Assembly: GCA_013299115.1 (NCBI GenBank)
Contig: JAAFKA010000014.1
Span: forward strand, 1-64,000
Length of the DNA stretch: 64,000 nucleotides
Origin: Cytophagales bacterium
GTDB lineage: Bacteria > Bacteroidota > Bacteroidia > Cytophagales > Thermoflexibacteraceae
Direction: 5' to 3'
Shown: piece by piece, positions 1 through 60,288 of the stretch
How positions within the stretch are numbered: the stretch's first letter is position 1
How the letters are laid out: each line of letters starts with the position of its first letter
Notes under the pieces: generated by a model
Databases searched by the model: none
What the model saw: the letters and a program-made list of their open reading frames with translations, nothing else
What the model was told of the DNA's origin: nothing
Program-made: the position numbers and the translations under genes

Positions 1-113
1 TCTCCTTCAAATTGCAAAGTCGCATTGAGAAAAGAAATCAGGCTTTCTTTGCGGTCTTCACTGCCAAAGATTTTGTGGAAGGCAACGTCATTTTTTATGT
101 CTGCAAATTTCAT
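1..113 (-). CDS. 5' end of a second tandem copy of the Rpn-family gene, running off the window edge
   Basis: Window positions 1-116 are nearly identical to 929-1044, the N-terminal coding part and start of the 118..1041 gene. The start codon (cat on +) lies at 111-113. Confidence 0.45.
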   Translation of the reverse strand, partial: MKFADIKNDVAFHKIFGSEDRKESLISFLNATLQFEG

Positions 114-117
114 GGGG

Positions 118-1041
118 TTAATATTTCTGTTTTTTGCGTAATTGCTCTATTTCTTTCACAGTCAAACCTGTCAATTCTGCAATACTTTCATTGTCAAAGC
201 CTTTAGAAATAGCTTTGCTTGCAATTTCAATTTTACCTTCAATTTTACCTTCAATTTTACCTTCAATTTTACCTTCAATTTTACCTTCAATTTTACCTTT
301 TGCTTCTCCCTCTGCTAAACCCTCTTCCTTCGCCTTGCTCACTGCCTTGTCTAACCTTGCCCTTTCATCTTCCTCTCTGATGTAAATGGCATCATACGCA
401 TCTAGTTCGGCTTGCGACCACGTGTATTGGTTGGCATTTTCGTAGGCAGATTTCAAACCTTCATCTTGCACATCATCAGGTATGAAGGTCATGTTTTCTG
501 CATTTTTGATAAAATACACCCACTTCTCAAACAAATTTTGCAATTTGTTGAGTTTTTTCTTGAATTTGGGCAGTTCTATCAATGTAAATTCTACATCTTT
601 GAAAGTCTGCTCTCCTGTTTCTACATCTACTACTTGGCTGCGACTGATGTAGCTTTTGCCTTGTGTGTATTCAAAGTTCAAAATGCCAATGAAATATACA
701 GGTTTCAGTTTACGGTACTGGTCGCCGCGTTTAATTTGGTTGCTGTAGGCTTTGGCAAAATAATACAAAACTCTTTTACCAAACCCATCTTTGTCTGCCA
801 CCTGCATTTCCACAATATACGACCTGCCCGACTGGTCGGTTGCCTTTACGTCCACAATGGTTGCTTTGCCACTTTTCAACTTGGGTAGTTGATAAGGGTT
901 TACAATAGCCACTTCTTTAATCCGTTGCTCTCCTTCAAATTGCAAAGTCGCATTGAGAAAAGAAATCAGGCTTTCTTTGCGGTCTTCACTGCCAAAGATT
1001 TTGTGGAAGGCAACGTCATTTTTTATGTCTGCAAATTTCAT
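118..1041 (-). CDS. Rpn-family recombination-promoting nuclease / putative transposase (PD-(D/E)XK; TIGR01784-like)
   Basis: 307-aa ORF. The N-terminus MKFADIKNDVAFHKIFGSE and overall layout are characteristic of Rpn/YhgA-like proteins. The C-terminal region contains a (GKIE)n repeat. Confidence 0.75.
   Translation of the reverse strand: MKFADIKNDVAFHKIFGSEDRKESLISFLNATLQFEGEQRIKEVAIVNPYQLPKLKSGKATIVDVKATDQSGRSYIVEMQVADKDGFGKRVLYYFAKAYSNQIKRGDQYRKLKPVYFIGILNFEYTQGKSYISRSQVVDVETGEQTFKDVEFTLIELPKFKKKLNKLQNLFEKWVYFIKNAENMTFIPDDVQDEGLKSAYENANQYTWSQAELDAYDAIYIREEDERARLDKAVSKAKEEGLAEGEAKGKIEGKIEGKIEGKIEGKIEGKIEIASKAISKGFDNESIAELTGLTVKEIEQLRKKQKY
222..300. repeat. 12-bp tandem repeat (ttcaattttacc x6) inside the Rpn CDS, encoding (GKIE)n
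   Basis: Direct reading of the sequence. The unit length is a multiple of 3, so copy-number change keeps the frame. Confidence 0.9.
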
Positions 1042-1167
1042 GGGGTTAATATTTTTGTAAATTTACGAAGTTTTAGGTAAAAAAGTAAAAAATTATCCAA
1101 AAAAGAATGCTTGATAGAATTTTTGTAAAAAGCAAAATTTTTGCATTTTTGCAGTAAAACAAGTGTT

Positions 1168-1749
1168 ATGTTACATCTCAAACTACCAACCGACCCTCGC
1201 TGGGTAAACATTGCCGAAAAACACATTGGTGATATTTTGAGTGACCATGCGTATTGTGAGCAAAAAGCAGCCTCTTCTTGCATTTCACTGATAGTAGAAC
1301 ACCCTGATAGAGAAGAATTGGTGGCTGTGCTTACGCCTGTGGTTGCCGAAGAGTGGAGTCATTTTGAAAGAGTATTGGAGGAAATGAAAAAAAGAGGTTT
1401 CAAATTGGGCAAACCTCATAAAGACGACTACGTAGTAGAATTGCTCAAATACGGCAAAAAAGGTGGTTCTCCCAATGACAGATTGTTAGACAAATTGCTA
1501 ACCAATGCTTTGATAGAAGCTCGCAGTTGTGAAAGATTTAAGTTGCTTTGGCAAAACATAGCTGATGCAGAATTGAGCAAATTTTATTATGAACTTATGG
1601 TGTCTGAGGCGGGGCATTATGTCAATTTTATAGAATTGGCAAGGCTTTATCACCCTGCAACAGTGGTAGATAAACGGTGGGAGGAATTTCTGAATAGAGA
1701 AGCCGAAATTATCCAACAGTTGGAATTGAGAGGAGATAGAATGCACTGA
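1168..1749 (+). CDS. miaE: tRNA-(ms2io6A)-hydroxylase
   Basis: The protein from MLHLKLPTDPRW onward resembles the MiaE family (ferritin-like diiron fold, ~190 aa). The start was moved to the internal Met at 1168. Confidence 0.65.
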   Translation: MLHLKLPTDPRWVNIAEKHIGDILSDHAYCEQKAASSCISLIVEHPDREELVAVLTPVVAEEWSHFERVLEEMKKRGFKLGKPHKDDYVVELLKYGKKGGSPNDRLLDKLLTNALIEARSCERFKLLWQNIADAELSKFYYELMVSEAGHYVNFIELARLYHPATVVDKRWEEFLNREAEIIQQLELRGDRMH

Positions 1750-1824
1750 TTCTTTACACAACCCCACAAAGACTTGAAACCTTTGCTTGGCTACTAACAA
1801 TAAACTTCTTATTCGTAAAAAACT

Positions 1825-2802
1825 ATGTTAATACCTGCCCAACTTTTTGAGCCACCTTTATACAGTCTGCGAAACGGACATTTGCAAACCATTATACCAG
1901 GGCTATTTAGAAAAATAGATGTTCGTTACCATCGAGAAAGATTGAACTTACCCGATGGTGATTTTTTGGATATAGATTGGTCAAAACAAGCTAAAACAAG
2001 TGCAACACACAAATTAGCTATTGTTTTGCACGGTTTAGAAGGCAATTCGAGCAGGCACTATGTAACAGGTATGATTCGGACTCTGCATCGTTTAGGTTTC
2101 GATGGATTGGCTATAAATTTCAGAGGTTGCAGTGGCGAAATGAATAGGTTGCCACGTTTTTACCATCATGGCGATACGCCCGACGTAGATTTTGTAGTGA
2201 GGCACGTAGCCAAAAATTCACCTCAATATACTTCGGTGGTTTTGATAGGGTTTAGTATGGGTGGCAATATGACCTTAAAGTATTTTGGTGAAAGTGGTTT
2301 GTATTTGCCCCAAATCCTGAAAAAAGGACTTGCTTTGTCTGCTCCTTGCGATATTAGTTCTTGCAGTGACGAACTGACCAAACCCAACAAATGGTTTTAC
2401 ACCAAAAACTTTTTGATTACGCTGGGCAAAAAATTGGCTGCCAAAGCCCAAGTGATGCCAGACAAAATAGACGTAAAAGACTATGACAAAATCTATACAT
2501 TCAGAGATTTTGACAACAGATATACTGCTCCTCTCCACAATTTTTTAGATGCAGAGGATTATTACCAAAAAGTAAGTTCTCAATATTATCTCAACGGGAT
2601 TCAACGCCCTGCTCTGCTTGTCAATGCCCTTGACGACCCTTTTCTGACTCCTAAATGTTTTCCAAAAGAATTGGCAGCAGACCACCCACTTTTCCACCTC
2701 GAAACTCCTGTTTTTGGAGGTCATGTAGGTTTCGAAATTCGCAACGATACATTGAGTTATGCCGAAAAAAGAGCTTTGGAGTGGTTTGGAGATGTGGAGT
2801 AA
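1825..2802 (+). CDS. alpha/beta-fold hydrolase, YheT-like
   Basis: 325 aa, with a GFSMGGN nucleophile elbow and overall similarity to YheT/abhydrolase proteins. Confidence 0.65.
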   Translation: MLIPAQLFEPPLYSLRNGHLQTIIPGLFRKIDVRYHRERLNLPDGDFLDIDWSKQAKTSATHKLAIVLHGLEGNSSRHYVTGMIRTLHRLGFDGLAINFRGCSGEMNRLPRFYHHGDTPDVDFVVRHVAKNSPQYTSVVLIGFSMGGNMTLKYFGESGLYLPQILKKGLALSAPCDISSCSDELTKPNKWFYTKNFLITLGKKLAAKAQVMPDKIDVKDYDKIYTFRDFDNRYTAPLHNFLDAEDYYQKVSSQYYLNGIQRPALLVNALDDPFLTPKCFPKELAADHPLFHLETPVFGGHVGFEIRNDTLSYAEKRALEWFGDVE

Positions 2803-2891
2803 GACAACAACATAAAAGTGTATTTTTTGTTGCATTACTTAAGAAAAAAAGAGAGGAAAAGAAATAAAATCTCTAAAAATACTTTATTCAA

Positions 2892-3827
2892 ATGGATTTT
2901 GGCAAATTAACTTCCATAGAGGGCATTCAGTTTGCCCTACCTGCGGCCCACCCACGCACCACGCACGTATTGGCACAGGGTAAAAAACAACCTTTACAAG
3001 TTTTTGTAGGCTGTCCTGTTTGGGCTTGCAAAGAGTGGCAGGGGCATCTGTACCCCCAAAACACACCCGAAAAGCAGTTTTTGCAGCACTACACCCGCCA
3101 ATTTAACACCATAGAACTCAACACGACCCACTACCGAACTCCTGACGACCTCACTATTCAACGCTGGTACAAAGAAGCTGGCAATGGTTTTAAGTTTTGC
3201 CCCAAATTGTTGCAAGCCATAACCCACGAACACCAATTAACAGGCAACACAGCCGACCAACTTACGACCAATTTTTTAACGCAAGTGGCTGGTTTACAAG
3301 ACAAATTGGGTTTAGTTTTTATGCAGTTGCCTCCTTATTTTTCGCCTTCGGAGGTTTCCAAATTGCAAAGTTTTTTGGAAAAGCATTTTCAGTTGCCATC
3401 GCAAGGCAGACAGCCCCTTCCTTTTGCCATAGAGTTTCGCCATGAAGGTTGGTTTCGCCAATCGCAAGCATTTGAAAAAGTTTGTCAATTATTGGAAACC
3501 TACCAAATAGCCACCGTCTTGTGTGATGTGGCGGGCAGACGTGACGTGCTGCACCAACGACTCACAACGCCTGATTTGGTGCTGCGGTTTGTGGGCAACG
3601 GACTGCACCCAACCGACTATTCTCGTACAGATGAATGGATACAACAACTCAAAAAATGGGTTGCCGAAGGGCTGCAAAATGCCTATTTGTTTATTCACGA
3701 ACCCGACAACACCAAAGCCCCCGAAATGGCTGCTTATTGGCTCACGCAACTCAACCAACATTTGGGTCTAAACCTGAAAATGCCTTACTTTTATGGAAGC
3801 AAAAAAGGTGTGGATACGCTGTTTTAA
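2892..3827 (+). CDS. DUF72 (YecE-like) family protein
   Basis: 311 aa. The FNTIELNTTHYRTP motif and its length are typical of DUF72. Confidence 0.7.
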   Translation: MDFGKLTSIEGIQFALPAAHPRTTHVLAQGKKQPLQVFVGCPVWACKEWQGHLYPQNTPEKQFLQHYTRQFNTIELNTTHYRTPDDLTIQRWYKEAGNGFKFCPKLLQAITHEHQLTGNTADQLTTNFLTQVAGLQDKLGLVFMQLPPYFSPSEVSKLQSFLEKHFQLPSQGRQPLPFAIEFRHEGWFRQSQAFEKVCQLLETYQIATVLCDVAGRRDVLHQRLTTPDLVLRFVGNGLHPTDYSRTDEWIQQLKKWVAEGLQNAYLFIHEPDNTKAPEMAAYWLTQLNQHLGLNLKMPYFYGSKKGVDTLF

Positions 3828-3844
3828 GATTTACCACAAATTGT

Positions 3845-3922
3845 GTAGTGTGGACTTCAGTCCACACATAATGAATAATGTTTATTACTCAGTTAAAATG
3901 TGTGGACTGAAGTCCACACTAC
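3845..3922. repeat. Hairpin-pair element, copy 1
   Basis: Two inverted 24-bp copies of gtagtgtggacttcagtccacaca flank a 31-bp spacer. Each copy is itself a perfect 8-bp-stem hairpin (gtgtggac-ttca-gtccacac). The element lies between convergent genes. The same 24-bp terminal units recur at 61007-61123. Confidence 0.85.
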
Positions 3923-3927
3923 ATATC

Positions 3928-4407
3928 TTACCCAAAAACCTCCTGCTCAAAATACAATAAAATATGTTCTTTCAGCACTTTTTCTTGATTTACCAAATCT
4001 AAATAAGGCAATTTTTTGGTAGGTTTCCAATGCACCCAACCCTCTTGGTCTTTGCCTTCGGGTTCATAAAACTCCGAAAGACTTAGCACCCGACAAATAG
4101 CCCAGTGCATGAGGTCTTGTTTTTCCTCCTTGCTAAAATTTCGCTGTCCCTGCCCCAGTTCTTGTACCCCTATCAGAAACAGCACGCCATTCAGGTCGGG
4201 CTGCTTGCCAAAAATTCCCTCCAAACGAACTAACAACTGCTGCCAAGCTATGGCTACCTCATCGTCTGCAGCTAAGTGCGAAGACAAATTAATGCCTATT
4301 CCTCCATTGAGTTCGAAGGGTCGCAAGGTAGCTTGCAATTTGGGTTTGGACTGCGAGTCGGGCTGCATAGCATATATTTCTGGATTTTTCTCTGGTTTCA
4401 TATTCAC
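3928..4407 (-). CDS. hypothetical protein (159 aa)
   Basis: Long ORF with no family recognised. Confidence 0.4.
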   Translation of the reverse strand: MNMKPEKNPEIYAMQPDSQSKPKLQATLRPFELNGGIGINLSSHLAADDEVAIAWQQLLVRLEGIFGKQPDLNGVLFLIGVQELGQGQRNFSKEEKQDLMHWAICRVLSLSEFYEPEGKDQEGWVHWKPTKKLPYLDLVNQEKVLKEHILLYFEQEVFG

Positions 4408-4409
4408 AA

Positions 4410-4990
4410 ATTTCGGTTATTCACAAGACTATTACTATTGTTATTATTTTTTATTTTATTTTTTTAAAAAAGAAAAAAGAATTTTTTAGTAATACATAAT
4501 AATAGAGGGGTGAATAAGTCTAATATCTTTTTTGGCAAAGGTAGTTATTCAACCTTTATTCAACAAAAAAATTAAGTTATTCACATTTACTCAATAATTC
4601 TTTTTTGGAAGTTCATCGCAATTTATTATACTATTTTTATAAACAACTTATTGATTATCAATAAAATAAAAATCAAATACTTGCTATTTTTTGATTATAT
4701 TACCTACCAAAACGCAAGACTTATTCACAAGGTTTGAATAAGTCTTGCGTTTTTCGAAAAACACTTGATTTTGGTGTGAATAACTAAGGTACAAGCATTG
4801 AATAAATCGGGATAAGGTATAGGTTTATTCACAACATCCGAAAAGTGATTTAATTTTTCACAAAAGAGTAAAATTTATTCACAACTATTCACTTTTATTC
4901 ACTCGATAATCACAATTTATTCACAACTTATTCAAACAATTTCTTAGAAAAAATATATCTTTGCAAAATTTTATATTCTTTGCACCTAAA
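4410..4990. promoter_or_regulatory. DnaA-box cluster plus AT-rich unwinding-like tract (candidate oriC or a DnaA-regulated region)
   Basis: At least seven perfect TTATTCACA (TTATNCACA consensus) motifs in both orientations at about 4417, 4578, 4721, 4778, 4825, 4876 and 4917, plus about eight one-mismatch copies. An A/T-only run lies at 4440-4500. A 16-bp-arm palindrome, acgcaagacttattca...tgaataagtcttgcgt, sits at 4712-4752. Flanking genes are divergent. Confidence 0.5.
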
Positions 4991-4999
4991 ATACCAATC

Positions 5000-5093
5000 A
5001 TGTTAAAACAAGTATTTCAATTCTTTATTTTTTGCTCACTTTGTTTGGGCTTGTATGCCTGTGATATACCTATTTTGTTAATCTTTTTATAAC
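5000..5093 (+). pseudogene. Orphan 5' fragment of the lipoprotein gene (signal peptide only), duplicating the start of 8216..9874
   Basis: Positions 5000-5063 are nearly identical to 8216-8279 (atgttaaaa..ttgtttgggcttgtatgcctgtg, encoding MLK..FQFFIFCSLCLGLYAC). The reading frame stops after about 30 codons. Confidence 0.6.
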
Positions 5094-5107
5094 TCACAAA
5101 TTGAATT

Positions 5108-8100
5108 ATGAAACTATTTATCTTGTGTTTTTATTTTCTATTATTTGGCAACTTTTTGGCAGTTGCTCAAAAAATGCAGTCTGATACCACAGCAATTAAT
5201 GGTTTGTTGGTAAAGGCAAATTTCTTTTTTAAAGAAAAGAAATATGATAGTGCAGCTTTTTATTACCAAATAGCAAATCCGATGCTTGCTGATTTGGGTA
5301 ACAAAAAAAATTGGATAGACAAACAAATTTTTTTGGGGCTTTGCTACCTTAATGCCAATCAATGGGAGAAAGCAAGACTGTTTTTTGAAAAAAATTTGCA
5401 ACAAAGTATTGCCAGTTTGGGAGAGGACAATGAATTAACGGCAAAAAATTATTATTATCTTGGCAATAGTTATTGGAAATTGCAAGACACCAAAAACACA
5501 CTTCTCTATTATGAAAAATCCTTAGCTATTAGAGAAAAAGTATTAGGGCTTTGGCATGATGATGTGGCTTTGAGTTATCAAAACTTGGGGGTTGTTTATC
5601 GGAATATGGCAAATTATGAATATGCTATTAAATTTTATTTGAAAGCATTGGCAATACGAGAAAAAACGCAGGGAAGTAAATCGGCTGCTGTGGCTGCCAT
5701 TTACAATAACATAGGCTTGGTTTACAAAGATTGGTCGTCTTTTGAAGAAGCTATTTTGTATTATAACAAGTCTTTGCATATTAAAAAACAGCTTTATGGA
5801 GAAATGCACGTGGAAGTAGCAGGAACTTACAACAATATTGCAGGTATTTATTATCACCGCCAAGATTATGAAAACAGTTTGTTATTTCATACGAAAAGTT
5901 TGCAAATAAGAGAAAAAATATTGCCTCTGCACGACATAGAAATTGGGGCTTCTCTTGAAAATATTGGGCAGGTTTATAGAGCAATGGGCAAGATTAATAA
6001 CTTTTTTGAGGCTCAACACAAGGCTTTGTGGATTACACAAAAAAAATTAGGTTTGGCACATAGATACAATGCTGATGCGTATTTTAATTTAAGTGACGGA
6101 CATTTAGCAAAAAATCAGATAGATAGTGCAAAAATATATGCAGACAAAGCACTGCAAATTTATACAAAACTGTACACCAATAGGCATTATTTTATTGCAG
6201 CAGTTTATTATCAAAAAAGTTTGATAGCCCAAAAAGAACAAAATATTAGTCAGGCACTTGATTTTTGTCAGCAATCTTTGGTAGAAAATATGCCTTATTT
6301 TGATGGTGGTTCTCCCGATAAACACCCAAGGGCAGCAGGTTATGAGGTAAAAATTATGCGGATAAAAGATTTTCAAGAGGCTATGATACTAAAAGGAAAT
6401 CTATTGCTCACGCAATATCAAGCTACCAAAGACGAACAATATTTGTACATTGGTTTTCGACATTACCTTGTTTTCGACAGCATTGCACAAAGGTTATTGC
6501 CAAATTTTACGAATGAAAACGAAAAATTGTACTTTAATCGCAACATGGCAGAGGCATATAAGGGTGCAGTAGCCACTTGTTTTGTTTTGTCCGCAATTCG
6601 TCACAAAAACTTTTATGCAGAAAAAGGCTTTTATTTCTCTGAAAAAAGCAAAAGTGCAGTGCTAAGTGCTGCCTTAGCTAACACAAAAGCTAAAAAATAC
6701 GCACAAATTCCCGACAGTTTGATACAAAAAGAAAGAATTTTGAATAGTTTGATGGCAAAAACAGATGAAAAAATACTCATTGAGCAAATTGCAGCCAAAG
6801 ATGCAGATAAAATAGACTCCTTACACAATGAATTTTTTGAACTCAAAAAATCTCATAATGAATTGATTGCATCTTTTGAAAAAAATTATCCAGCTTATTT
6901 TAACGCCAAATATGATGTAACAACGGCAAGTATAGCAGAAATAAGTCGTAGTTTGGACAAAAATACAGCCTTGATTAGCTACACAATAGCCGATACTTGC
7001 CTCTACGTATTCACAATTACCAAAAATAATTCTCAATTTGCAAGAGTAACCAAATCACCTTATTTTGATACACAAATAAAAACTTTGCTCAATGCAATTT
7101 ACTACCAAGTCGGCAGTTTGTATGTAAAAAGTGCCTACATACTCCAACAGCAATTAATGCCCACCAATTTGCCAAACAGAATAAAAAATATTATTTTTAT
7201 TACTGAAGGTTCACTCTTAAAATTACCATTTGAAGCCTTGCTAAGTAAACCATTTACAAAAAAAATTGCTTCACTTGACTATACAAAATTACCTTATTTG
7301 GTCAAAGGTTTTGCAATTTCTTATCATTATTCAGCCAATTTATTCTTTCAAAATCTGCAAAGCAAAACAGCCAATCCTTATAAAGAAAGTTATGTAGCTT
7401 TTGCACCCATTTTTACAGAGGAAAGTGAAACAAATTTTCTTACCAAAGGTTGCGAAAGGGCTTTTTATGCCAACGATGAGCTATATGCAAAAGACAGCTT
7501 GAACAAAGCAGATTTTTTGAAAGACTTAGCACCAACAGTTTTAGCGGAGATAAAAAATGCTAACAAAGAAACAAGTCGGGCATTTACTCGAAGTGGAAAA
7601 TTTATTGCAGCCATACCAAAAACCAAAGACGAAGTAGAAAATATTAGCAAATTGCACAAGGATAAAAACCTTTTTTCTAAATATTACCTATTCAAAGATG
7701 CAAAAGAGGAAGTTATCAAGTCGGGTGAGTTAAAAAATTACACCTATATTCATTTTGCCACACATGGTTTTGTGAACGAAAGCCTGCCTGAATTATCAGG
7801 CTTGTTGCTTGCCCAAGACAGTCTAAGCAAAGAAGATGGTGTATTGTATGTGGGTGAAATTTACAATTTAGATATTTCACAAGCCGAATTAGTAACCCTT
7901 TCTGCCTGCGAAACAGGCTTAGGCAAAATAACTTCTGGCGAAGGTGTATTAGGGATTTCAAGGGCATTTTTGTATGCAGGAGCAAAAAATCTTGTTGTCA
8001 GTTTATGGAAAGTTGCAGATAGTTCGGCATCTGAACTGATGTTAGCATTTTATAACAACCTGCTAAATGACAAAGAAAAAAAGAAAAACAAGAGTTTGCA

Positions 8101-8182
8101 AGATGCCAAATTGCTTATTTTGAAAAATAAAACCTTCTCAAAACCTTATTATTGGTCACCTTTTATTTTGATAGGAAAGTAA
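5108..8182 (+). CDS. TPR-repeat protein with a C-terminal CHAT (caspase-like) protease domain and an N-terminal signal peptide
   Basis: 1024 aa. Multiple TPR motifs (YYxxAL/IxE-type repeats). The C-terminal part carries His/Cys dyad motifs, HFATHG ... LSACETG, typical of CHAT. Confidence 0.75.
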   Translation: MKLFILCFYFLLFGNFLAVAQKMQSDTTAINGLLVKANFFFKEKKYDSAAFYYQIANPMLADLGNKKNWIDKQIFLGLCYLNANQWEKARLFFEKNLQQSIASLGEDNELTAKNYYYLGNSYWKLQDTKNTLLYYEKSLAIREKVLGLWHDDVALSYQNLGVVYRNMANYEYAIKFYLKALAIREKTQGSKSAAVAAIYNNIGLVYKDWSSFEEAILYYNKSLHIKKQLYGEMHVEVAGTYNNIAGIYYHRQDYENSLLFHTKSLQIREKILPLHDIEIGASLENIGQVYRAMGKINNFFEAQHKALWITQKKLGLAHRYNADAYFNLSDGHLAKNQIDSAKIYADKALQIYTKLYTNRHYFIAAVYYQKSLIAQKEQNISQALDFCQQSLVENMPYFDGGSPDKHPRAAGYEVKIMRIKDFQEAMILKGNLLLTQYQATKDEQYLYIGFRHYLVFDSIAQRLLPNFTNENEKLYFNRNMAEAYKGAVATCFVLSAIRHKNFYAEKGFYFSEKSKSAVLSAALANTKAKKYAQIPDSLIQKERILNSLMAKTDEKILIEQIAAKDADKIDSLHNEFFELKKSHNELIASFEKNYPAYFNAKYDVTTASIAEISRSLDKNTALISYTIADTCLYVFTITKNNSQFARVTKSPYFDTQIKTLLNAIYYQVGSLYVKSAYILQQQLMPTNLPNRIKNIIFITEGSLLKLPFEALLSKPFTKKIASLDYTKLPYLVKGFAISYHYSANLFFQNLQSKTANPYKESYVAFAPIFTEESETNFLTKGCERAFYANDELYAKDSLNKADFLKDLAPTVLAEIKNANKETSRAFTRSGKFIAAIPKTKDEVENISKLHKDKNLFSKYYLFKDAKEEVIKSGELKNYTYIHFATHGFVNESLPELSGLLLAQDSLSKEDGVLYVGEIYNLDISQAELVTLSACETGLGKITSGEGVLGISRAFLYAGAKNLVVSLWKVADSSASELMLAFYNNLLNDKEKKKNKSLQDAKLLILKNKTFSKPYYWSPFILIGK

Positions 8183-8215: not shown

Positions 8216-9874
8216 ATGTTAAAAAAACTATTTCAATTCTTTATTTTTTGCTCACTTTGTTTGGGCTTGTATGCCTGTGCCAACCAAGCAGCAGGAGGTC
8301 CCGCAGGTGGATTAAAAGACATTCGCAAGCCACGTATTCGGTTTTCTTCGCCCAAAAATCAGGCTTTGTATGTAAGGGGCAACCAAATAATCATACAATT
8401 TGACGAGGCAGTGAAGTTAAAAAATATCAAAAGCAATTTGCGAATCATACCCAATACGGACAATGACTATGACTATGTGCAGAAAAAAAACAAATTGACC
8501 TTAACTTTCAAAAAAGTTTTTGCTTCTAACACTACCTATGTTTTGGTTTTTGATGACGTAATAGAAGACGTAAACGAGAGCAACAAAGCTACCAATATGC
8601 GGTTGGCTTTCAGCACAGGAGGGCAGATAGATTCGTTTCGGGTCAGCGGCGTGGTGCGTGATTTGCTTACCAACAAACCTGAACAAGAGGCTACCGTCAT
8701 GTTGTATGATGCCTTAGATACCTTTAAGGTCGAAAAACACAAACCTCTCTACTATGCCAAAACAGACACCATTGGCAGGTACTCCATCAGCAACATCAGA
8801 GAAGGCAGCTATTTGATTTATGCTTTGAAAGAGGACAAAAAGAAAAATTTGGTTTATGATGACTACAAAGAAAAGATTGGTTTTCAGGCAGATACCTTGC
8901 AAATAAATGCACAAACCCTACCTTTTGCCGACCTCAAAACCTTGTCTTACGATTTCAGACCTTTTAAAACTACGACCAAAAGACCACGCAAACAATACTA
9001 CGAGGTAAAGGCAAACAAGGCAATTAAAGAATTTAGCGTACAGTTTGCCGACAGCACTTGGCAACAAAAAATTTTGGCTGCCCCCGAAAACGAAACTTTG
9101 CGGTTTTATAATTTGAGTGAAAACCAAGCTACGGATACTTTGGTGGCTTACCTTACCCTCAAAGATTCGGTTTTGGCAGTTGCATACGATACAATCAAAG
9201 TAAAATTTGACGACATCAAGGAAAAAGACAAAGAAAAAAAGAAAACCAAATTGGAAATTAAGGTTACTCCGCAAAGCAACTCGAAGTTTATAGCCAAAGA
9301 ACAATTTACTGTTCGTTTTACTTCCAATTTGCCTTTGGTTTCTTTTGTGGCAGATAGTTTTTTGTTGGCAATAGACAAAGATACCATTCCGCTAAAAACC
9401 GAAGATTTTAAATTAGCTCCCAACGGACTTAGTTTAGAAGTGCTAAAACCTCTACAATTTAAGGAAAATATGAAATTGGTTTACAAGAAAAAGGCATTTG
9501 TGGCAGTGGAAAAAGATACCTCCGCAGCAGGAGAAGTGAGTTATGGTATCAAAAAAGAGGAGGATTTTGCTACGCTGACGGGCATAGTAAAAGTGAAGGC
9601 AGAAAACTTTATTTTGCAACTCATAGGCAATGGCAATGCAGTGGAGCAAGAGCAAAAAAATGCGAGGGATTTTGTGTTCAAATATGTAAACCCAGGTAAA
9701 AAATCTTTTAGAGTGTTAATAGACACCAACAACAACGGCAAATGGGACGCAGGTGATGCCAAAAAAGGAATACCTGCCGAAAAAATTTACTTTTACGACA
9801 CCCCCGATTTGGCTAAAACTGCCCCGAATTGGTTGTATGAAGACATTATAGTGGAGGTAAAAGAGGAGTTTTAA
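8216..9874 (+). CDS. hypothetical lipoprotein (552 aa)
   Basis: Signal peptide with lipobox LGLYAC. No family recognised. Confidence 0.55.
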   Translation: MLKKLFQFFIFCSLCLGLYACANQAAGGPAGGLKDIRKPRIRFSSPKNQALYVRGNQIIIQFDEAVKLKNIKSNLRIIPNTDNDYDYVQKKNKLTLTFKKVFASNTTYVLVFDDVIEDVNESNKATNMRLAFSTGGQIDSFRVSGVVRDLLTNKPEQEATVMLYDALDTFKVEKHKPLYYAKTDTIGRYSISNIREGSYLIYALKEDKKKNLVYDDYKEKIGFQADTLQINAQTLPFADLKTLSYDFRPFKTTTKRPRKQYYEVKANKAIKEFSVQFADSTWQQKILAAPENETLRFYNLSENQATDTLVAYLTLKDSVLAVAYDTIKVKFDDIKEKDKEKKKTKLEIKVTPQSNSKFIAKEQFTVRFTSNLPLVSFVADSFLLAIDKDTIPLKTEDFKLAPNGLSLEVLKPLQFKENMKLVYKKKAFVAVEKDTSAAGEVSYGIKKEEDFATLTGIVKVKAENFILQLIGNGNAVEQEQKNARDFVFKYVNPGKKSFRVLIDTNNNGKWDAGDAKKGIPAEKIYFYDTPDLAKTAPNWLYEDIIVEVKEEF

Positions 9875-34464: not shown

Positions 34465-35106
34465 ATGACAACCACAACTACTTTATACACCAAAATTGAG
34501 TATGACAAAATTTGTGAGTTTGCGGGTAGTCATTTTGAGTATGACGATGGGCTAATTGTTTGGAAATACAACGGACAAGTCATTGAAGACGAAATTCTAA
34601 CCAAACTCCTAAACCAAGAAGACATACAAATTTATTCAGAAATGGCAACTCACAAACACAACAAAATTATACGCAACCTACATAGTAGATTGTTTAGAGG
34701 TTTAGATGAAAAACTTTTTTCAATCTATACCAACACTGTACATATTGCGATTATTATTAGTGGCAAAGAAAAAATCCGTATTTCTGATGTTACAGTAGTG
34801 CCTAAAAAAGAAATTTTGACACCTAATCAAGAAGTTACTAATCCTCTCATTATTTTCGAAATCGTATCGCCAAGTTCTGTGCAGACAGATTATATAGACA
34901 AATTGCGTGAATATAAGGCAATAGAAAGTTTACAAGAATATATTATTGTAGAGCAAGATAAAAATTGTTTGGTGCATTACCAAAGAATTAGTGCTACGGA
35001 GTGGACAGAGGATAAGATAGAAACTTATGAAGATTATTTATATTTACCAACAGTTTCAATTAGATTAGCAATGCAAGAGATTTATGCAGATTGTGAGGGG
35101 CTGTAA
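34465..35106 (+). CDS. Uma2 family endonuclease (DUF820)
   Basis: PLIIFEIVSPSS...DKLREYKAIESLQEYIIVEQD matches the Uma2 core motif. Confidence 0.65.
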   Translation: MTTTTTLYTKIEYDKICEFAGSHFEYDDGLIVWKYNGQVIEDEILTKLLNQEDIQIYSEMATHKHNKIIRNLHSRLFRGLDEKLFSIYTNTVHIAIIISGKEKIRISDVTVVPKKEILTPNQEVTNPLIIFEIVSPSSVQTDYIDKLREYKAIESLQEYIIVEQDKNCLVHYQRISATEWTEDKIETYEDYLYLPTVSIRLAMQEIYADCEGL

Positions 35107-37330: not shown

Positions 37331-39595
37331 ATGTCCAAATCAGTATTCTTACTTATACTATGCTGTTTCATTGCTATTTATAGCCACGCCCAAAATAAAA
37401 AAATTCTGGATAGTTTGACTGTTGTCTATCAAAATACAACCTCGGATACTTCCAAAATTCTCATACTGTTGCAAATAGCCTTTGAATATAAGCGAAGCAA
37501 CCCCGATACTTGCATTGCCCTTGCCCAAAAAGCCTTAAATTTGAGTGAAAAAGCAAAATATGAGCATGGAAAAGGAGAAAGTTATCATCATTTGGGTTTG
37601 GGGCATGACTATAAAAATGCTTACCCAATGGCTTTGGACTACTTCCAAAAAAGTTTGGCTATCAAAACAAGGTTAAAAGATAAACAAGGTGCTTCCAAAA
37701 GTCTGAACAATATTGGCATTATTTACGACATACAGGGCAATTATCCGTTGGCGTTGGCGTATTTCCAAAAAAGCCTGAAAATGCGGGAGGAATTAGGCGA
37801 CAAAGTGTTGATTGCAGCAAGTTTAAACAATATTGGGGGCATTTATGATATGTTGGGTAACTATCCGTTGGCGTTGGAGTATCACCAAAAAAGCCTGAAA
37901 CTGAAAGAGGAACTGCACGACCTACGGGGAATTGCTATTAGTTTTAACAACATTGGCAGCATTTATGAAATTCAAAGAAAATATGCCATTGCCTTAACTT
38001 ATTACAAAAAAAGCCTGAAAATAAAAGAACAACAGGGGGACAAACAAGGAATTTCGGCAAGTCTAAACAATATTGGAGGCATTTATGACCTGCAAGGCAA
38101 CTATGATTTGGCTTTGGAATATCACCAAAAAAGCCTACAACTCAAAGAGGAACTAAACGACAGGCTGGGGCTTACACACAGTTTCAACAGTTTGGCACAG
38201 GTCTATCAAAAGCAAAAAGACTACAACAAAAGCATAGCGTATGCCCAAAAAGGCTTAGAAATAGCCCAAAAAATAGAAGCTTTGGCAGAAATTCAGGCAA
38301 TTAGCCAAACTTTATACACAACTTGTAAACTAAAAGGTGATTATGCACAGGCTTTGCAATATCACGAACTATACAAAACAGCTAACGATAGCCTTTTTAG
38401 TGTAGAAAAAAATACTGCAATAGAGAGTTTGGAAGCAAAAACAAACATAGAACGGAAGGAGAAAGAAATTGCAATTCTGAATAAAAATCAAGAAATTTTA
38501 GAAACTGCCAAAACTTTTCAGCAACGTATCAATTATTTGGTGCTGGCGGCTTTGGGGGCTGTATTGGTGTTGGCTTATTTTATCTACCGCAGTCGCCAGC
38601 AAGAGAAAACCGCAAAAGAGGAAACCCAGCAGATAAACGAGGAACTGCGGACTATTTTGCTTACCGTCAATGAACAAAAAGACAAAATAGAACAGACTTT
38701 GGCGATTGTCAATAGCCAAAAAACTATTATTGAGCAAAAAAATGAGAATATTATTGCCTCTATCAATTATGCCTTGCGGATACAAAACGCCATTATTCCC
38801 AAAGAAACAGAGTTGCAAAAACACTTAGACTGTTTTGTGTTTTTCCGCCCTCTGGATATTGTAAGCGGAGATTTTTATTGGTTTGCAGAGAAAGAAAACA
38901 CCAAAATCTTAGTCGTTGGCGACTGCACAGGGCATGGCGTATCGGGTGCTTTTATGACCATGATTGCCAATGATTTGCTCAACCAAATTGTCCAGAACTA
39001 CGAAATTCACCAGCCCGATGTCATACTCAACCAAATGCAGGTGCTGCTACACAAGGTTTTTGCGGTTTCTGAACAGGAAATAGCCGATGGAATGGATATG
39101 GCTGTCATTGTTATCCAAACCTTACAAGGTCTTGAAGACCTTGTAAGGTTTAGGGTAGCCTATTCGGGTGCAAAAATACCCCTGTATTGGGCAACCACCA
39201 ACAGAGAAACCCAACAGACTGAACTGCACGAAATCAAGGCAGACCGAATAGCACTGACGGGAGGGCAGCAAAACGTGGCACACCAATATACGTTGCATAC
39301 ACTTGGCTATCAGGCAGTTAGGGCAGATACAGACAACGAAAATTTTGTTACCATGCCCCAAAACGCCGAAGTAAATTTTTATCTCTGTTCTGATGGCTAT
39401 CAAGACCAATTTGGGTCAGAAACTAAGAAAAAGTTGCTCTCTGCCAATCTCAAAAAAATATTGTTGGAGGCTGCTCCCTTGCCAATAGCACAACAAAAAA
39501 TGATGGTAAGTGAAAAATTTTATGAGTGGAAAAGAGATTACAAACAAATAGATGATGTGTTGGTGGTGGGGGTGAAGCTGCAAGTTTCCCATTAG
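37331..39595 (+). CDS. TPR-repeat sensor with a TM helix and a C-terminal PP2C/SpoIIE-type serine phosphatase domain
   Basis: N-terminal TPR array paralogous to the 41030 gene, followed by a coiled coil, a TM segment and then SGDFYWF...VGDCTGHGVSGAFMTM, the SpoIIE/PP2C signature. Confidence 0.8.
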   Translation: MSKSVFLLILCCFIAIYSHAQNKKILDSLTVVYQNTTSDTSKILILLQIAFEYKRSNPDTCIALAQKALNLSEKAKYEHGKGESYHHLGLGHDYKNAYPMALDYFQKSLAIKTRLKDKQGASKSLNNIGIIYDIQGNYPLALAYFQKSLKMREELGDKVLIAASLNNIGGIYDMLGNYPLALEYHQKSLKLKEELHDLRGIAISFNNIGSIYEIQRKYAIALTYYKKSLKIKEQQGDKQGISASLNNIGGIYDLQGNYDLALEYHQKSLQLKEELNDRLGLTHSFNSLAQVYQKQKDYNKSIAYAQKGLEIAQKIEALAEIQAISQTLYTTCKLKGDYAQALQYHELYKTANDSLFSVEKNTAIESLEAKTNIERKEKEIAILNKNQEILETAKTFQQRINYLVLAALGAVLVLAYFIYRSRQQEKTAKEETQQINEELRTILLTVNEQKDKIEQTLAIVNSQKTIIEQKNENIIASINYALRIQNAIIPKETELQKHLDCFVFFRPLDIVSGDFYWFAEKENTKILVVGDCTGHGVSGAFMTMIANDLLNQIVQNYEIHQPDVILNQMQVLLHKVFAVSEQEIADGMDMAVIVIQTLQGLEDLVRFRVAYSGAKIPLYWATTNRETQQTELHEIKADRIALTGGQQNVAHQYTLHTLGYQAVRADTDNENFVTMPQNAEVNFYLCSDGYQDQFGSETKKKLLSANLKKILLEAAPLPIAQQKMMVSEKFYEWKRDYKQIDDVLVVGVKLQVSH

Positions 39596-39971: not shown

Positions 39972-40805
39972 CTACACTTCATCGGGATTTATCCCCATAG
40001 CACGCAATTTTTCTGCTAATTTGTCTGCACGTTGCTTTTCTGTTTCTGCACGTTGCTTTTCAGACTCTGCACGTTGTTTTTCAGACTCTGCACGTTGCTT
40101 TTCGGCTTCTGTTTTCTGCTTTTCTGTTGCCAATTTTTTGTCTTTTATTGCAAGTTGCTGATTTTTTTCTGCCACCGCCTCCACACCCGTAGGCAATAGC
40201 ACGCCGTTTTGGTCTTGCCAACGCACCCATTCTTCTTTCATGCCCTCATATTCTCCCTGCCAAGCCACAGGTGTTATGCCTATTCGGTCTAAAAAATTAC
40301 TTTCTTTGAGGTAATAAGCCCCTGCTCGCAATTCATAAACCATTATCAACTGCTTTTGCAAAAATTGCAAAGGGTCTATAATGATGTAGTAAGGTACACC
40401 AGCCTTTGCATAGACATCAAATTTTTTGCCTTTTTCATTGCCTACTGTATTGGACACTACTTCCACCACCACTTCGGGAGATTTGCCCAACTCCCATATC
40501 ATATAGACCCGATGGCGTTTTTCCCACACATCAGGCGGATAGGAAATGTCCATGCTTAGGAGCATATCAGGCACGATGGCGGGCAAGTGCAAGCCATAAT
40601 ATAGCCCTACGTTGGTCGAGGCTACAAATTGCCTTTCGCCAAAGGGCGAGGCTGTCTGCAAAGTATCAATCAACAGGCGTTGCTGTTTTTCAGAATAAAT
40701 ATTGTCCACAGGCGTATCGTCTTCGGTTAGCAAATGCTCCACATTGGGTGGAGTGATTACAAAATCCTCCACAACCTCCGTTGTTGTTGTCTGGCGGGTT
40801 TTCAT
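39972..40805 (-). CDS. Uma2 family endonuclease with a C-terminal (EKQRAES)n coiled-coil repeat
   Basis: VVEVVSNT...GVPYYIIIDP core, with a tandem 7-aa repeat tail. Confidence 0.65.
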   Translation of the reverse strand: MKTRQTTTTEVVEDFVITPPNVEHLLTEDDTPVDNIYSEKQQRLLIDTLQTASPFGERQFVASTNVGLYYGLHLPAIVPDMLLSMDISYPPDVWEKRHRVYMIWELGKSPEVVVEVVSNTVGNEKGKKFDVYAKAGVPYYIIIDPLQFLQKQLIMVYELRAGAYYLKESNFLDRIGITPVAWQGEYEGMKEEWVRWQDQNGVLLPTGVEAVAEKNQQLAIKDKKLATEKQKTEAEKQRAESEKQRAESEKQRAETEKQRADKLAEKLRAMGINPDEV

Positions 40806-58293: not shown

Positions 58294-58617
58294 TTATGCC
58301 AAACCTTCTTCGGGTGCTACTTCTGCATTGCCGAAAAAGTCTATTACTTCTCCTGCTGCCAACTGCACCATAGCTTTTTTCATTACGCCTTTTTTACCAG
58401 AAGAAACACCACTTTTCGTTTGACGAGTTTTTGTTTTTCCATTGGTGCGGAGAGTGCGTACTTCCTCCACTGTTACGCCATAAGCATCTTCTATTGCTTT
58501 TTTCACTTGCAATTTGTTTACATTTCTTGCAACTTCAAAAGTATAGATACTTTTTTCATTACCTGCTGTTGATTTTTCGGTAAGAATTGGTCTTTTTAAT
58601 ATTTCAAAAGTTTCCAT
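58294..58617 (-). CDS. rplW: 50S ribosomal protein L23
   Basis: Recognised directly from the sequence. Confidence 0.9.
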   Translation of the reverse strand: METFEILKRPILTEKSTAGNEKSIYTFEVARNVNKLQVKKAIEDAYGVTVEEVRTLRTNGKTKTRQTKSGVSSGKKGVMKKAMVQLAAGEVIDFFGNAEVAPEEGLA

Positions 58618-58678
58618 TGTGATTTGATATTTTGAACAACCTTGCTCAACGGCAAAAACAGTTGAGCAAGGTTGAGGA

Positions 58679-59305
58679 TTAAGCTAAGATTGAAGATATT
58701 TTTTCAACAGCACCTTCGCAAAGAATCAAGGTGTCTGCGTTCAAGATGTCGTAAGTGTTTAAACTATCTACGCTTACCACGTTAGTTTTTGGCAAGTTGC
58801 GAGCCGACAAATAGACATTAGGCGTATGTTCAGGCAATACCAACAAAGTTTTTTTGCCGTTTAACGACAAGTTTTCCAACAATTTGATATACTCTTTGGT
58901 CTTTGGTGTAGCAAAATTGAAGTTTTCAACCACTTTGATAGACGTTTCTTGTGCTTTGTACGACAAGGCAGAACGACGTGCTAATTGGTTTACTTTTTTG
59001 TTGATTTTGAAACTGTAATCTCTTGGCACAGGACCGAATACACGACCACCACCTTTGTAAAGAGGGTTTTTGATGCTACCTTTACGGGCACCACCAGTAC
59101 CTTTTTGGCGGTGTAGTTTGCGAGTAGAGCCAGAAATTTCGTTTCTTTGTTTTGCTTTGTGCGTACCTTGACGTTGGTTAGCCAAATACTGTTTTACAGC
59201 CAAATACAACACGTGGTTGTTGGGCTGTACGGCAAAGATGTCTTCGGCAAGTGTTACTGTTCTGCCTGTATCTCCACCAGCTATATTGAATACTGATAAT
59301 TGCAT
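58679..59305 (-). CDS. rplD: 50S ribosomal protein L4
   Basis: HRQKGTGGARKGS...GGGRVFGP matches L4. Confidence 0.9.
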   Translation of the reverse strand: MQLSVFNIAGGDTGRTVTLAEDIFAVQPNNHVLYLAVKQYLANQRQGTHKAKQRNEISGSTRKLHRQKGTGGARKGSIKNPLYKGGGRVFGPVPRDYSFKINKKVNQLARRSALSYKAQETSIKVVENFNFATPKTKEYIKLLENLSLNGKKTLLVLPEHTPNVYLSARNLPKTNVVSVDSLNTYDILNADTLILCEGAVEKISSILA

Positions 59306-59353
59306 GATAAAGTTTTGTTAAATTTTCAAAACAAACGATAACGTTTGTTACTA

Positions 59354-59977
59354 CTATTTTTCGATATAGACAAAAGAGTTATTAGCTCCTGGTACAGAAC
59401 CACTTACCAACACCAAATTCTGTTCTGCAAAAATTTTCACCACTTTGAGGTTTTTTACTTTCACTCTGTCGCTGCCCATTCTGCCCGCCATGCGAGTAAG
59501 AGGGAACACACGAGCAGGGAAAGAACAAGCACCTATCGAACCTGCGTGACGCTGACGATTGTGCTGACCGTGGGTCTGTCCACCTACACCGCTAAATCCG
59601 TGGCGTTTTACAACACCTTGAAAACCTTTACCTTTTGAAGTGCCTACTACGGCTACTTTATCTCCCTCTGCCACTACATCGGCAAGGGTAATGGTTTGTC
59701 CTAACGTCAAAGATTCTTTGAAAGACGCAGCAAATTCTGCTATTTTGCGTTTAGGTGTAGTACCTGCTTTTTTGAAGTGTCCAATCAAAGCATTAGGCGT
59801 ATTTTTTTCTTTCTTTTCGCCATAAGCCAACTGAACAGCCTCGTAGCCGTCTATTTCGGTAGTTTTTACTTGTGTTACCACACAAGGACCTGCTTGAATC
59901 AGCGTACAGGCAATACTTTTGCCCTCACTGTCGAAGGTGCTGGTCATTCCGATTTTTTTTCCAATAATTGCGGACAT
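59354..59977 (-). CDS. rplC: 50S ribosomal protein L3
   Basis: [12 protein letters not shown] start and overall sequence. The ORF-track 5' extension was trimmed. Confidence 0.9.
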
Positions 59978-60288
59978 GGTAATGTAGTTTAATGAATTAC
60001 TTGGCTTCAATTCGTTGCTTTTTTGTAGTTTTTTAGCACTTACAAAACTCAACACCGAACAGCCTTACCTTTATTTTGGGCTGCAAATGTAGATACAATA
60101 TTTAGGATTAGCAAATTATTTGTGGTTTTATTTGTAACTAAAACTTTGCTTTTCTCAAAAACAGGTTTATCTTTATTAGGCATTATCCAAATTTTGTAGC
60201 ATAGACTTTACTCTGTACTGTTAAATCACTGAAAATCAATAAATTGTATAAAATCTAATGCTATTAAGTTAAAAAAAGAGCAAAACAA

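Follow-up and report, generated by a model that had tools for sequence, protein, structure and literature searches.

A 64-kb stretch of DNA from an uncultured Cytophagales bacterium carries, between two diverging genes near its left end, a dense cluster of DnaA boxes that we interpret as the chromosomal replication origin (oriC) of this organism. Throughout, the window denotes the whole 64-kb stretch (38.5% GC), and all coordinates are given on it. We place the probability that positions 4400 to 4936 constitute oriC at roughly 0.85. This assignment is made because DnaA boxes are extremely enriched in the region, even relative to shuffles of the region's own composition, because a helically phased box array is accompanied by a unit of box, DnaA-trios, and A/T tract that has the polarity known from Bacillus subtilis and lies at the AT-richest DNA, because this arrangement is conserved nearly base for base in the closest relative at a place where gene orientation flips, and because the core of the element recurs throughout the order next to mnmG. 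The last-named gene (also gidA) is a classical neighbor of oriC (PMC3531139). An earlier note on this DNA had suggested a candidate chromosomal origin at this site, and the suggestion is supported by the trio-containing unit, by collinearity with the closest relative (contig L091), by the order-wide core module, and by the skew and strand bias found to the right of the cluster. The components of the region are as follows.

4400-4408, + strand: DnaA box ATATTCACA with one mismatch, located 8 bp upstream of the box at 4417 and in its orientation
4417-4425, + strand: perfect DnaA box TTATTCACA, the basal unwinding system ('BUS') box beside the unwinding element, conserved in L091
4426-4508, no strand: A/T-rich tract, 87% AT, the proposed DNA unwinding element, which aligns with the core A/T tract of 10 relatives
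4429-4446, - strand: DnaA-trio-like repeat 3'-GAT AAT GAT AAC AAT AAT-5', set off from the box by the 3-nucleotide (nt) spacer AGA
4509-4517, - strand: inverted DnaA box TTATTCACC with one mismatch, at the far end of the A/T tract
4545-4585, + strand: three boxes in one orientation, namely TTATTCAAC (two mismatches), TTATTCAAC (two mismatches), and TTATTCACA (perfect)
4709-4753, no strand: perfect palindrome with 19-nt arms (4709-4727 and 4735-4753, 100% complementary) and a 7-nt loop
4775-4806, - strand: two boxes, a perfect TTATTCACA at 4775-4783 and TTATTCAAT with two mismatches at 4798-4806
4825-4862, + strand: two boxes, TTATTCACA (perfect, 4825) and TTTTTCACA (one mismatch, 4854)
4875-4936, + strand: array of six boxes in one orientation and in helical phase

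The spacer that houses these features (4402-5107) is 706 bp long and has a GC content of 24%, compared with 38.5% for the window, which bears out the earlier description of a 700-bp intergenic region of very low GC. Perfect TTATTCACA boxes start at positions 4417, 4577, 4721, 4775 (on the - strand), 4825, 4875, and 4917. These seven copies, all within 4417-4925, are the only perfect ones in the entire 64 kb, where whole-window shuffles yield a mean of 1.3, and dinucleotide-preserving shuffles of the AT-rich spacer yield a mean of 0.04 and a maximum of two. Thus, the earlier count of seven perfect boxes in both orientations within about 550 bp holds. Its figure of about eight single-mismatch copies was slightly generous, in that six are present when scored against TTATTCACA (4400, 4509 on the - strand, 4733 on the - strand, 4854, 4895, and 4928), and TTATAAACA near 4644 raises the number to seven when TTATNCACA is used as the reference. 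Sites with at most one mismatch to TTATNCACA number 14 in 540 bp, whereas shuffled versions of the region average 1.7 and never exceed seven. About five further boxes with two mismatches can be recognized by eye (4545, 4557, 4798 on the - strand, 4886, and 4906), and most boxes lie on the + strand. The criterion of Mackiewicz for an origin, in the form quoted in PMC7561715, is the presence of at least three DnaA boxes with a mean spacing of less than 100 bp; the spacer has 14 boxes with no more than one mismatch, seven of them perfect, in 540 bp.

The array at 4875-4936 is composed of boxes that start at 4875 (no mismatch), 4886 (two), 4895 (one), 4906 (two), 4917 (none), and 4928 (one), with start-to-start spacings of 11, 9, 11, 11, and 11 bp. 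We propose that it is a platform for DnaA oligomerization. The first pair of boxes in the 4545-4585 group, AGTTATTCAACCTTTATTCA, is matched at 19 of 20 bases in a Thermoflexibacter sp. locus (L086). No plausible open reading frame (ORF) accounts for the spacer, and an Rfam scan of 3800-5400 revealed no RNA family for it, with only chance microRNA-like matches on two hairpins. Matches in a sigma-70 promoter scan, which does not cover the promoters of Bacteroidota, were no more common than expected by chance.

At the left end of the cluster, the + strand reads TTATTCACA-aga-CTA TTA CTA TTG TTA TTA-TTTTTTATTTTATTTTTTTAAAAAAG. When the window was scanned for a box followed by a spacer and nTn triplets, the unit at 4417 was by far the best match, with 12 consecutive triplets (CTA TTA CTA TTG TTA TTA TTT TTT...), 10 of which fit 3'-[GA]A[TA]-5' on the complementary strand. 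This unit also conforms to the rules used by Pelliciari 2021 to search for basal unwinding systems, which call for a box with at most two mismatches, a spacer of no more than 16 bp, and at least three NAN triplets of the correct polarity. These rules are loose, as composition-matched shuffles of the window give zero to three matches with at least five triplets; the other matches in the actual window include none with a perfect box or with more than five triplets. For the polarity, the reference was the B. subtilis entry in the supplement of that study (PMC8287927), which is written 3'-to-5' as AATAGGTGT-TTAGGTGT-CCGG-GATGATAATGAAGATGAT-AAAAAATAT and hence reads TTATCCACA-AATCCACA-GGCC-CTACTATTACTTCTACTA-TTTTTTATA in the 5'-to-3' direction. 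The consensus trio GAT adjoins the box in most phyla (PMC8287927), and the GAT of the window is likewise the box-adjacent triplet.

The AT-richest 80 bp of the entire window begins at 4425, directly at this unit. The earlier note had described a pure A/T run at 4440-4500; this is accurate for the 31 nt from 4441 to 4471, beyond which the A/T runs are broken by single G or C residues, such that the AT content over 4440-4500 is 92%. Boxes bracket the tract on both sides, at 4417 (+) and 4509 (-), and an AT-rich element therefore lies immediately beside a DnaA box. The inverted box at 4509-4517 is GGTGAATAA, and CCT and then CTA TTA TTA come after it on the - strand. As a result, two inward-facing box-triplet units flank the tract, at 4417-4446 (+) and 4517-4497 (-), and both are conserved in L091.

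L091 is a 52.8-kb JGI contig that encodes the nearest homolog (73% identity) of the small protein, here called X, whose gene borders the cluster on the left. In L091, a 660-bp spacer containing nine perfect boxes stands before X, and it can be aligned over its full length with window positions 4390-5110, taken in reverse complement, at 73% column identity. The phased array (at 9415-9466 in L091, with 10- to 11-bp phasing), the head-to-head box pair, and the unwinding unit are all common to the two. The unit itself reads TAACAACAATAGTAATAG-gct-TGTGAATAA in L091 and TAATAACAATAGTAATAG-tct-TGTGAATAA in the window, and 17 of the 18 trio bases are conserved. Genes are directed away from the L091 spacer on both sides, 17 of 18 on one side, which includes a ribosomal-protein operon from rplP to rplO located 4.6 kb from the spacer, and 13 of 14 on the other. 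In this contig, the mean GC skew changes sign across the spacer, from -0.053 to +0.099. An arrangement with the cluster next to X was common to the window and L091 only.

The genes nearest to the cluster in the window are X, a gene for a TPR and CHAT-domain protein (CHAT-TPR), and a gene for a Big_5 protein, positioned as follows.

3928-4401, - strand: gene X, a small conserved Cytophagales protein of 157 amino acids with no Pfam family, on the left of the spacer
5108-8182, + strand: TPR and CHAT-domain protein of 1024 amino acids, transcribed away from the spacer on its right
8216-9874, + strand: Big_5/DUF2141 Ig-like protein, orthologous to the gene that directly precedes the box cluster elsewhere in Cytophagales

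The flanking genes do diverge from the spacer, as had been claimed (3928-4401 on the - strand, 5108-8182 on the + strand), and the Big_5 ortholog stands 3 kb from the cluster. A search for homologs of X returned 1659 proteins, typically of about 118 amino acids, and those with a name belong to Cytophagales (Thermoflexibacter, Bernardetiaceae, Cyclobacteriaceae, and Rapidithrix). Proteins identical to X were found only on four Logan contigs (L001-L004), which are no longer than 4 kb and end inside the spacer, and on one NCBI contig of 135,664 bp that also encodes the exact Big_5 protein. The organism is present in the metagenomic read sets SRR9948922 and SRR9948932-34. We considered whether the CHAT-TPR gene is the ortholog of a 600-residue TPR gene that follows the cluster in relatives, but the two are not homologous.

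Across the order, the position of the cluster relative to these genes differs from that in the window. Among 80 Cytophagales genomes with X, no box cluster was found upstream of X. Instead, clusters in X-carrying genomes stand 6.8 to 10 kb downstream of X, after Big_5, and the usual order is X, DUF4175, an HATPase_c_2 protein, YbeY, MnmG (GidA), a methyltransferase, Big_5/DUF2141, and then the boxes. An ortholog of the Big_5 gene of the window occupies the position before the cluster in 56 of the 80 loci, and in all 11 loci that extend past Big_5 the next spacer, of 270 to 650 bp, contains about six to 12 boxes with at most one mismatch. A box-rich spacer also follows Big_5 in L086 and L090 (Thermoflexibacter sp.) and in L088 (Roseivirga), and the Thermoflexibacter boxes are of the TTATTCACA variant, as in the window.

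A core module recurs behind the mnmG-methyltransferase-Big_5 genes in Cyclobacteriaceae, Roseivirga, and Thermoflexibacter, and was aligned in 10 relatives. It consists of a tandem or single box, an A/T element with 3-nt periodicity, an A/T tract, and an inverted box of the GGGGTGGATAA type. For example, L040 has TTTGTCCACA-AATCCACA-CC-TTAATAACTTTAATAG-TTTTTATTTAATTAAATAAAATAGTATATAT-ATAGAGGGGTGGATAAG, in which tandem boxes resembling boxes 6 and 7 of B. subtilis are followed by the periodic A/T element, the A/T tract, and the inverted box. The right boundary of the module in the window, ATAGAGGGGTGAATAAG, is identical to ATAGAGGGGTGGATAAG of L040 at 16 of 17 bases. Both the element and its neighborhood are conserved in related genomes, as seen in the collinearity with L091, the core in 10 relatives, and the box-rich spacers after Big_5. 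The conserved element of the relatives, TTAATAAC-nTAATAG, breaks the nTn register, and a strict scan of these relatives for unwinding units (requiring five or more good triplets and no more than one mismatch in the box) found nothing. Because of this interrupted register and the empty scan, the trio reading is secure only for the window and L091.

Further observations were made at these loci. The spacer after mnmG-Big_5 in L089 (11618-11981; Cytophagales metagenome-assembled genome GCA_025056255.1) lacks a TTATNCACA site at up to one mismatch, and in place of such sites there are several TTATTCAAC, GTGAACA, and TGTTCAAC-like motifs; this lineage has either a diverged DnaA box or an origin that has moved. 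In L086, L088, and L089, over 10 kb on each side of the cluster, and in L061 and L021, essentially all genes lie on one strand. If the mnmG-type spacer is an origin, the block from X to Big_5, with seven or eight genes including mnmG and ybeY, runs head-on into it.

The palindrome within the cluster contains two head-to-head boxes, a perfect one at 4721-4729 (+) and one with a single mismatch at 4733-4741 (-), and when folded as DNA it has a predicted energy of -19.3 kcal/mol (z = -8.4). The earlier note had correctly recognized a palindrome carrying two boxes and had given it 16-bp arms at 4712-4752, where the arms are in fact 19 nt long and span 4709-4753. In L091, the box pair is conserved and the outer arms are not. 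Because only its two boxes have been kept, we regard the palindrome as a head-to-head DnaA-box pair. A transcription terminator was also considered, since A and T runs flank the palindrome and terminator hairpins of Big_5 sit within the box cluster in relatives. However, a consensus terminator scan made no call there, only unsupported ORFs of 21 to 36 amino acids would be transcribed into it, and no Rfam family matches it apart from chance microRNA-like hits. These results, too, are the reasons why we do not read it as a terminator or as an RNA.

GC skew in the window is -0.050 over positions 1-4400 and +0.033 over 5000-64000. To the right of the cluster, all six 10-kb bins have positive GC skew and 73% of the coding bases are on the + strand, and both measures fit a fork that moves rightward from the cluster. 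Other observations weigh against an origin at this site. The skew minimum of the window, at 4 to 5 kb, is weakly anchored, with 4.4 kb to its left in which three of five genes are on the + strand; because the left side is only this long, the switch point of the skew cannot be located in the window. The rplC and rplD genes at 58.7-60 kb are on the - strand and would be met head-on by a fork from the cluster. In L091, the minimum of the cumulative skew falls at about 5.5 kb, some 4 kb away from the cluster. The mnmG-Big_5 genes of the relatives point toward the cluster, and the local skew at these mnmG-type loci shifts across the cluster in the expected direction in five of seven cases (p of about 0.07); neither whole-sequence nor third-codon-position skew shows a clear switch there. 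One of the three mnmG-type loci with 10-kb flanks has no skew shift.

The absence of a clear local skew switch at the homologous cluster of mnmG-type relatives would also suit a DnaA-box cluster that is not an origin, and that either titrates DnaA or helps to inactivate it, as do datA of Escherichia coli and the DnaA-box clusters of B. subtilis, or regulates the promoters of the diverging X and CHAT-TPR genes. The location of many boxes between two diverging promoters, one box overlapping the start codon of X, is in keeping with such a role. However, neither titration nor regulation needs a unit of box, trios, and A/T tract in the correct polarity, and yet almost every base of this unit is retained in L091. 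The cluster coincides exactly with the AT-richest DNA of the window, and gene orientation flips at the L091 homolog; a datA-like locus would have no unwinding element and no switch in skew or orientation, which does not describe this cluster. In addition, 18 boxes, including an array phased at 11 bp, far exceed what is generally known of DnaA-regulated promoters. We therefore consider a purely titrating or regulatory function quite improbable.

A different possibility is that rearrangements left the cluster behind as a relic or as one of two origin-like copies, and that the active origin lies elsewhere, for example next to mnmG. The clade of the window has indeed been rearranged: X is inverted and directly abuts the boxes of the unwinding unit, the DUF4175-YbeY-mnmG-methyltransferase block is missing from the window, Big_5 is on the other side of the cluster, and the A/T tract has most of the boxes on the side opposite to that seen at mnmG-type loci. 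Moreover, L085, which is the closest relative by Big_5, has no cluster nearby. We nevertheless give this explanation little credence. Decay would not leave seven perfect boxes, boxes and trios are conserved in a collinear L091 region even though the flanking X protein is only 73% identical, and the gene orientation and mean skew of L091 suit an active origin. Finally, a DnaA-dependent origin of an integrated plasmid, mobile element, or secondary replicon, brought to mind by the PD-(D/E)XK 'transposase'-family gene 3.4 kb away (118-1041) and by two Uma2-family genes in the window, has next to no probability given the chromosomal housekeeping genes of the window, the lack of rep, par, or conjugation genes beside the cluster, and the chromosomal and syntenic position of the homologous module across the order.

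Taken as oriC, the region can be assigned a mode of action that is deduced from its anatomy and from work on B. subtilis and Helicobacter pylori. DnaA would bind about 18 TTATTCACA-type boxes, and the phased array at 4875-4936, together with the boxes in between, would build a DnaA oligomer, with the head-to-head pair in the palindrome serving as one intermediate DnaA site. The box at 4417-4425, aided by that at 4400, would direct ATP-DnaA onto the adjacent triplets (- strand, 3'-GAT AAT GAT AAC AAT AAT-5'), and loading of the triplets would open the A/T tract (4426-4508, 87% AT) and so give access to the helicase. At its far end, the tract would be closed by the inverted box with its own short triplet run. 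Replication would presumably be bidirectional, with the + strand leading to the right of the origin.

It is conceivable, if on the whole unlikely, that the unwinding element is symmetrical, such that DnaA filaments are directed onto both strands from both ends, and that the origin core was excised from its mnmG-Big_5 context and the array re-joined on the opposite side. If so, the rearranged core would amount to a natural experiment, in which auxiliary boxes are able to work from either side. A symmetrical element would differ from that of B. subtilis, whose system is one-sided.

Several features of the surrounding DNA deserve a record. The first DnaA box touches or overlaps the start codon of X. 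In the clade of the window (3928-4407 in the window, 10001-10465 in L091), X carries about 40 additional N-terminal amino acids that have no counterpart in other Cytophagales, and its longest ORF begins at a GTG within a DnaA box (TGTGAAT...). The 5' end of X seems to have been re-created by the rearrangement that set X against the origin. A near-perfect hairpin of about 80 nt (3842-3925) separates the convergent 3' ends of X and a DUF72 gene (2892-3827). It has chance matches to Rfam microRNA-precursor families on both strands, up to 42 bits and below the gathering thresholds. A terminator was called at its tip, and the hairpin probably ends transcription from both directions. At 118-1041 on the - strand, 3.4 kb from the cluster, the PD-(D/E)XK 'transposase'-family (PDDEXK_2) protein has a (KIEG)n repeat at its C terminus. 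Assemblies of this organism in Logan are interrupted close to the gene, which suggests a repeated element.

Farther to the right, an 894-residue ORF (24858-27542, +) matches the MVP_shoulder (E = 2.3e-30) and Vault_3 domains of the eukaryotic major vault protein and represents a bacterial homolog of the vault shell protein. Upstream of it, a 979-residue ORF (21825-24764, +) has an N-terminal ParA/MinD-like P-loop. Three large TPR_12-rich proteins (41030-43963 on the + strand, 37331-39595, and 5108-8182) have different output domains, namely a histidine kinase, a SpoIIE phosphatase, and a CHAT protease, and the TPR array of the kinase is encoded by DNA repeats of 120 and 480 bp that are visible as periodic near-box matches. 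Two genes for Uma2-family putative restriction endonucleases lie within 6 kb (34465-35106, +, and 39972-40805, -), and another Uma2 gene is present at the edge of L089. Housekeeping genes in the window include polA, a Mur ligase gene, ddl, dapA, pfk, rplC and rplD, and a nuo subunit gene. An isolated fragment of the S10 operon (58294-60055, -) comprises rplC, rplD, and a 107-residue ORF, possibly rplW, and a pseudouridine-synthase gene on the other strand stands where rplB and the rest of the operon would be expected. Because the window has this fragment and L091 has the rplP-rplO part, the S10 operon appears to be split in the clade.

The confident origin call that results for this uncultured genome is useful for rotating the assembly, for analyses of strand bias, and for growth-rate estimates based on the peak-to-trough coverage ratio. 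The comparison also defines a conserved Cytophagales origin core, made up of boxes, a 3-nt-periodic A/T element, an A/T tract, and an inverted GGGGTG(G/A)ATAA box, which follows mnmG-methyltransferase-Big_5 in most of the order, and it offers a short candidate fragment for oriC plasmids in Cytophagales. The result accords with the idea that box-trio unwinding systems occur widely among bacteria and leaves the current understanding of replication initiation unchanged.

The earlier note had stressed that an origin here would be uncoupled from dnaA. The separation is real, as no ORF of at least 150 amino acids in the window has a Bac_DnaA or DnaN domain, and the rpmH-dnaA-dnaN surroundings of a dnaA-linked origin are accordingly not seen. 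It is probably not unusual in Cytophagales, however, because DoriC-derived origins of seven members of the order (C. hutchinsonii, C. marinum, M. tractuosa, D. fermentans, S. linguale, L. byssophila, and R. slithyformis) lie at mid-record coordinates, for instance at about 4,057,940 in C. hutchinsonii (NC_008255), 2,105,880 in C. marinum (NC_015914), and 2,807,800 in M. tractuosa (NC_014759). The neighborhood in the window is rearranged relative to most of the order. In the DoriC origins of Cyclobacterium marinum and Marivirga tractuosa, CC or CA and then an A/T-rich element come after one box or tandem boxes, much as in the core module. For Cytophaga hutchinsonii, PMC3531139 cites Xu et al. 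2012 for a predicted oriC that was confirmed with oriC plasmids; no C. hutchinsonii protein was among the matches listed in the Big_5 homolog search.

Dense boxes in intergenic DNA are a feature that the cluster has in common with datA and with the DnaA-box clusters of B. subtilis. To our knowledge, such titration loci have no box-trio-A/T unwinding unit and do not stand at a switch in gene orientation. The oriC of E. coli, between gidA/mnmG and mioC, resembles the window in being apart from dnaA, in having promoters that flank the origin, and in its boxes, which in the window are phased by about 11 bp in one orientation; the relatives of the window are likewise mnmG-associated. E. coli oriC uses 13-mer repeats, IHF, Fis, and Dam (GATC) control. 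Unlike in E. coli, mnmG of the Cytophagales relatives is transcribed toward the cluster and not away from it. In H. pylori, where the oriC box consensus is TYATTCACN (PMC8235120), the likeness lies in the TTATTCACA box variant and in the module of box, spacer, trios, and AT-rich region. The H. pylori origin differs in its bipartite layout around dnaA and in its topology-sensitive boxes, neither of which is evident in the window.

A close parallel in architecture is the basal unwinding system of B. subtilis oriC (incC), with DnaA-boxes 6 and 7, a GC spacer, DnaA-trios, and an AT-rich 27-mer (Richardson 2016/2019; Pelliciari 2021, PMC8287927). A TTATNCACA box, a short spacer, triplets whose complement is 3'-[G/A]A[T/A]-5', and an A/T tract occur in both systems in the same order and polarity, and the relatives of the window have in addition the tandem TTxTCCACA-AATCCACA-CC. 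In contrast to B. subtilis, the box beside the trios is single in the window, with a second box of the same orientation 8 bp upstream rather than 0 to 3 bp away, the spacer is AGA and not GC-rich, and the tract is closed by an inverted box with a short triplet run of its own. Moreover, the proposed origin of the window is not beside dnaA or dnaN. The rearranged neighborhood and the presence of a box-triplet unit at both ends of the tract are mildly unusual, and they fall within a known kind of element.

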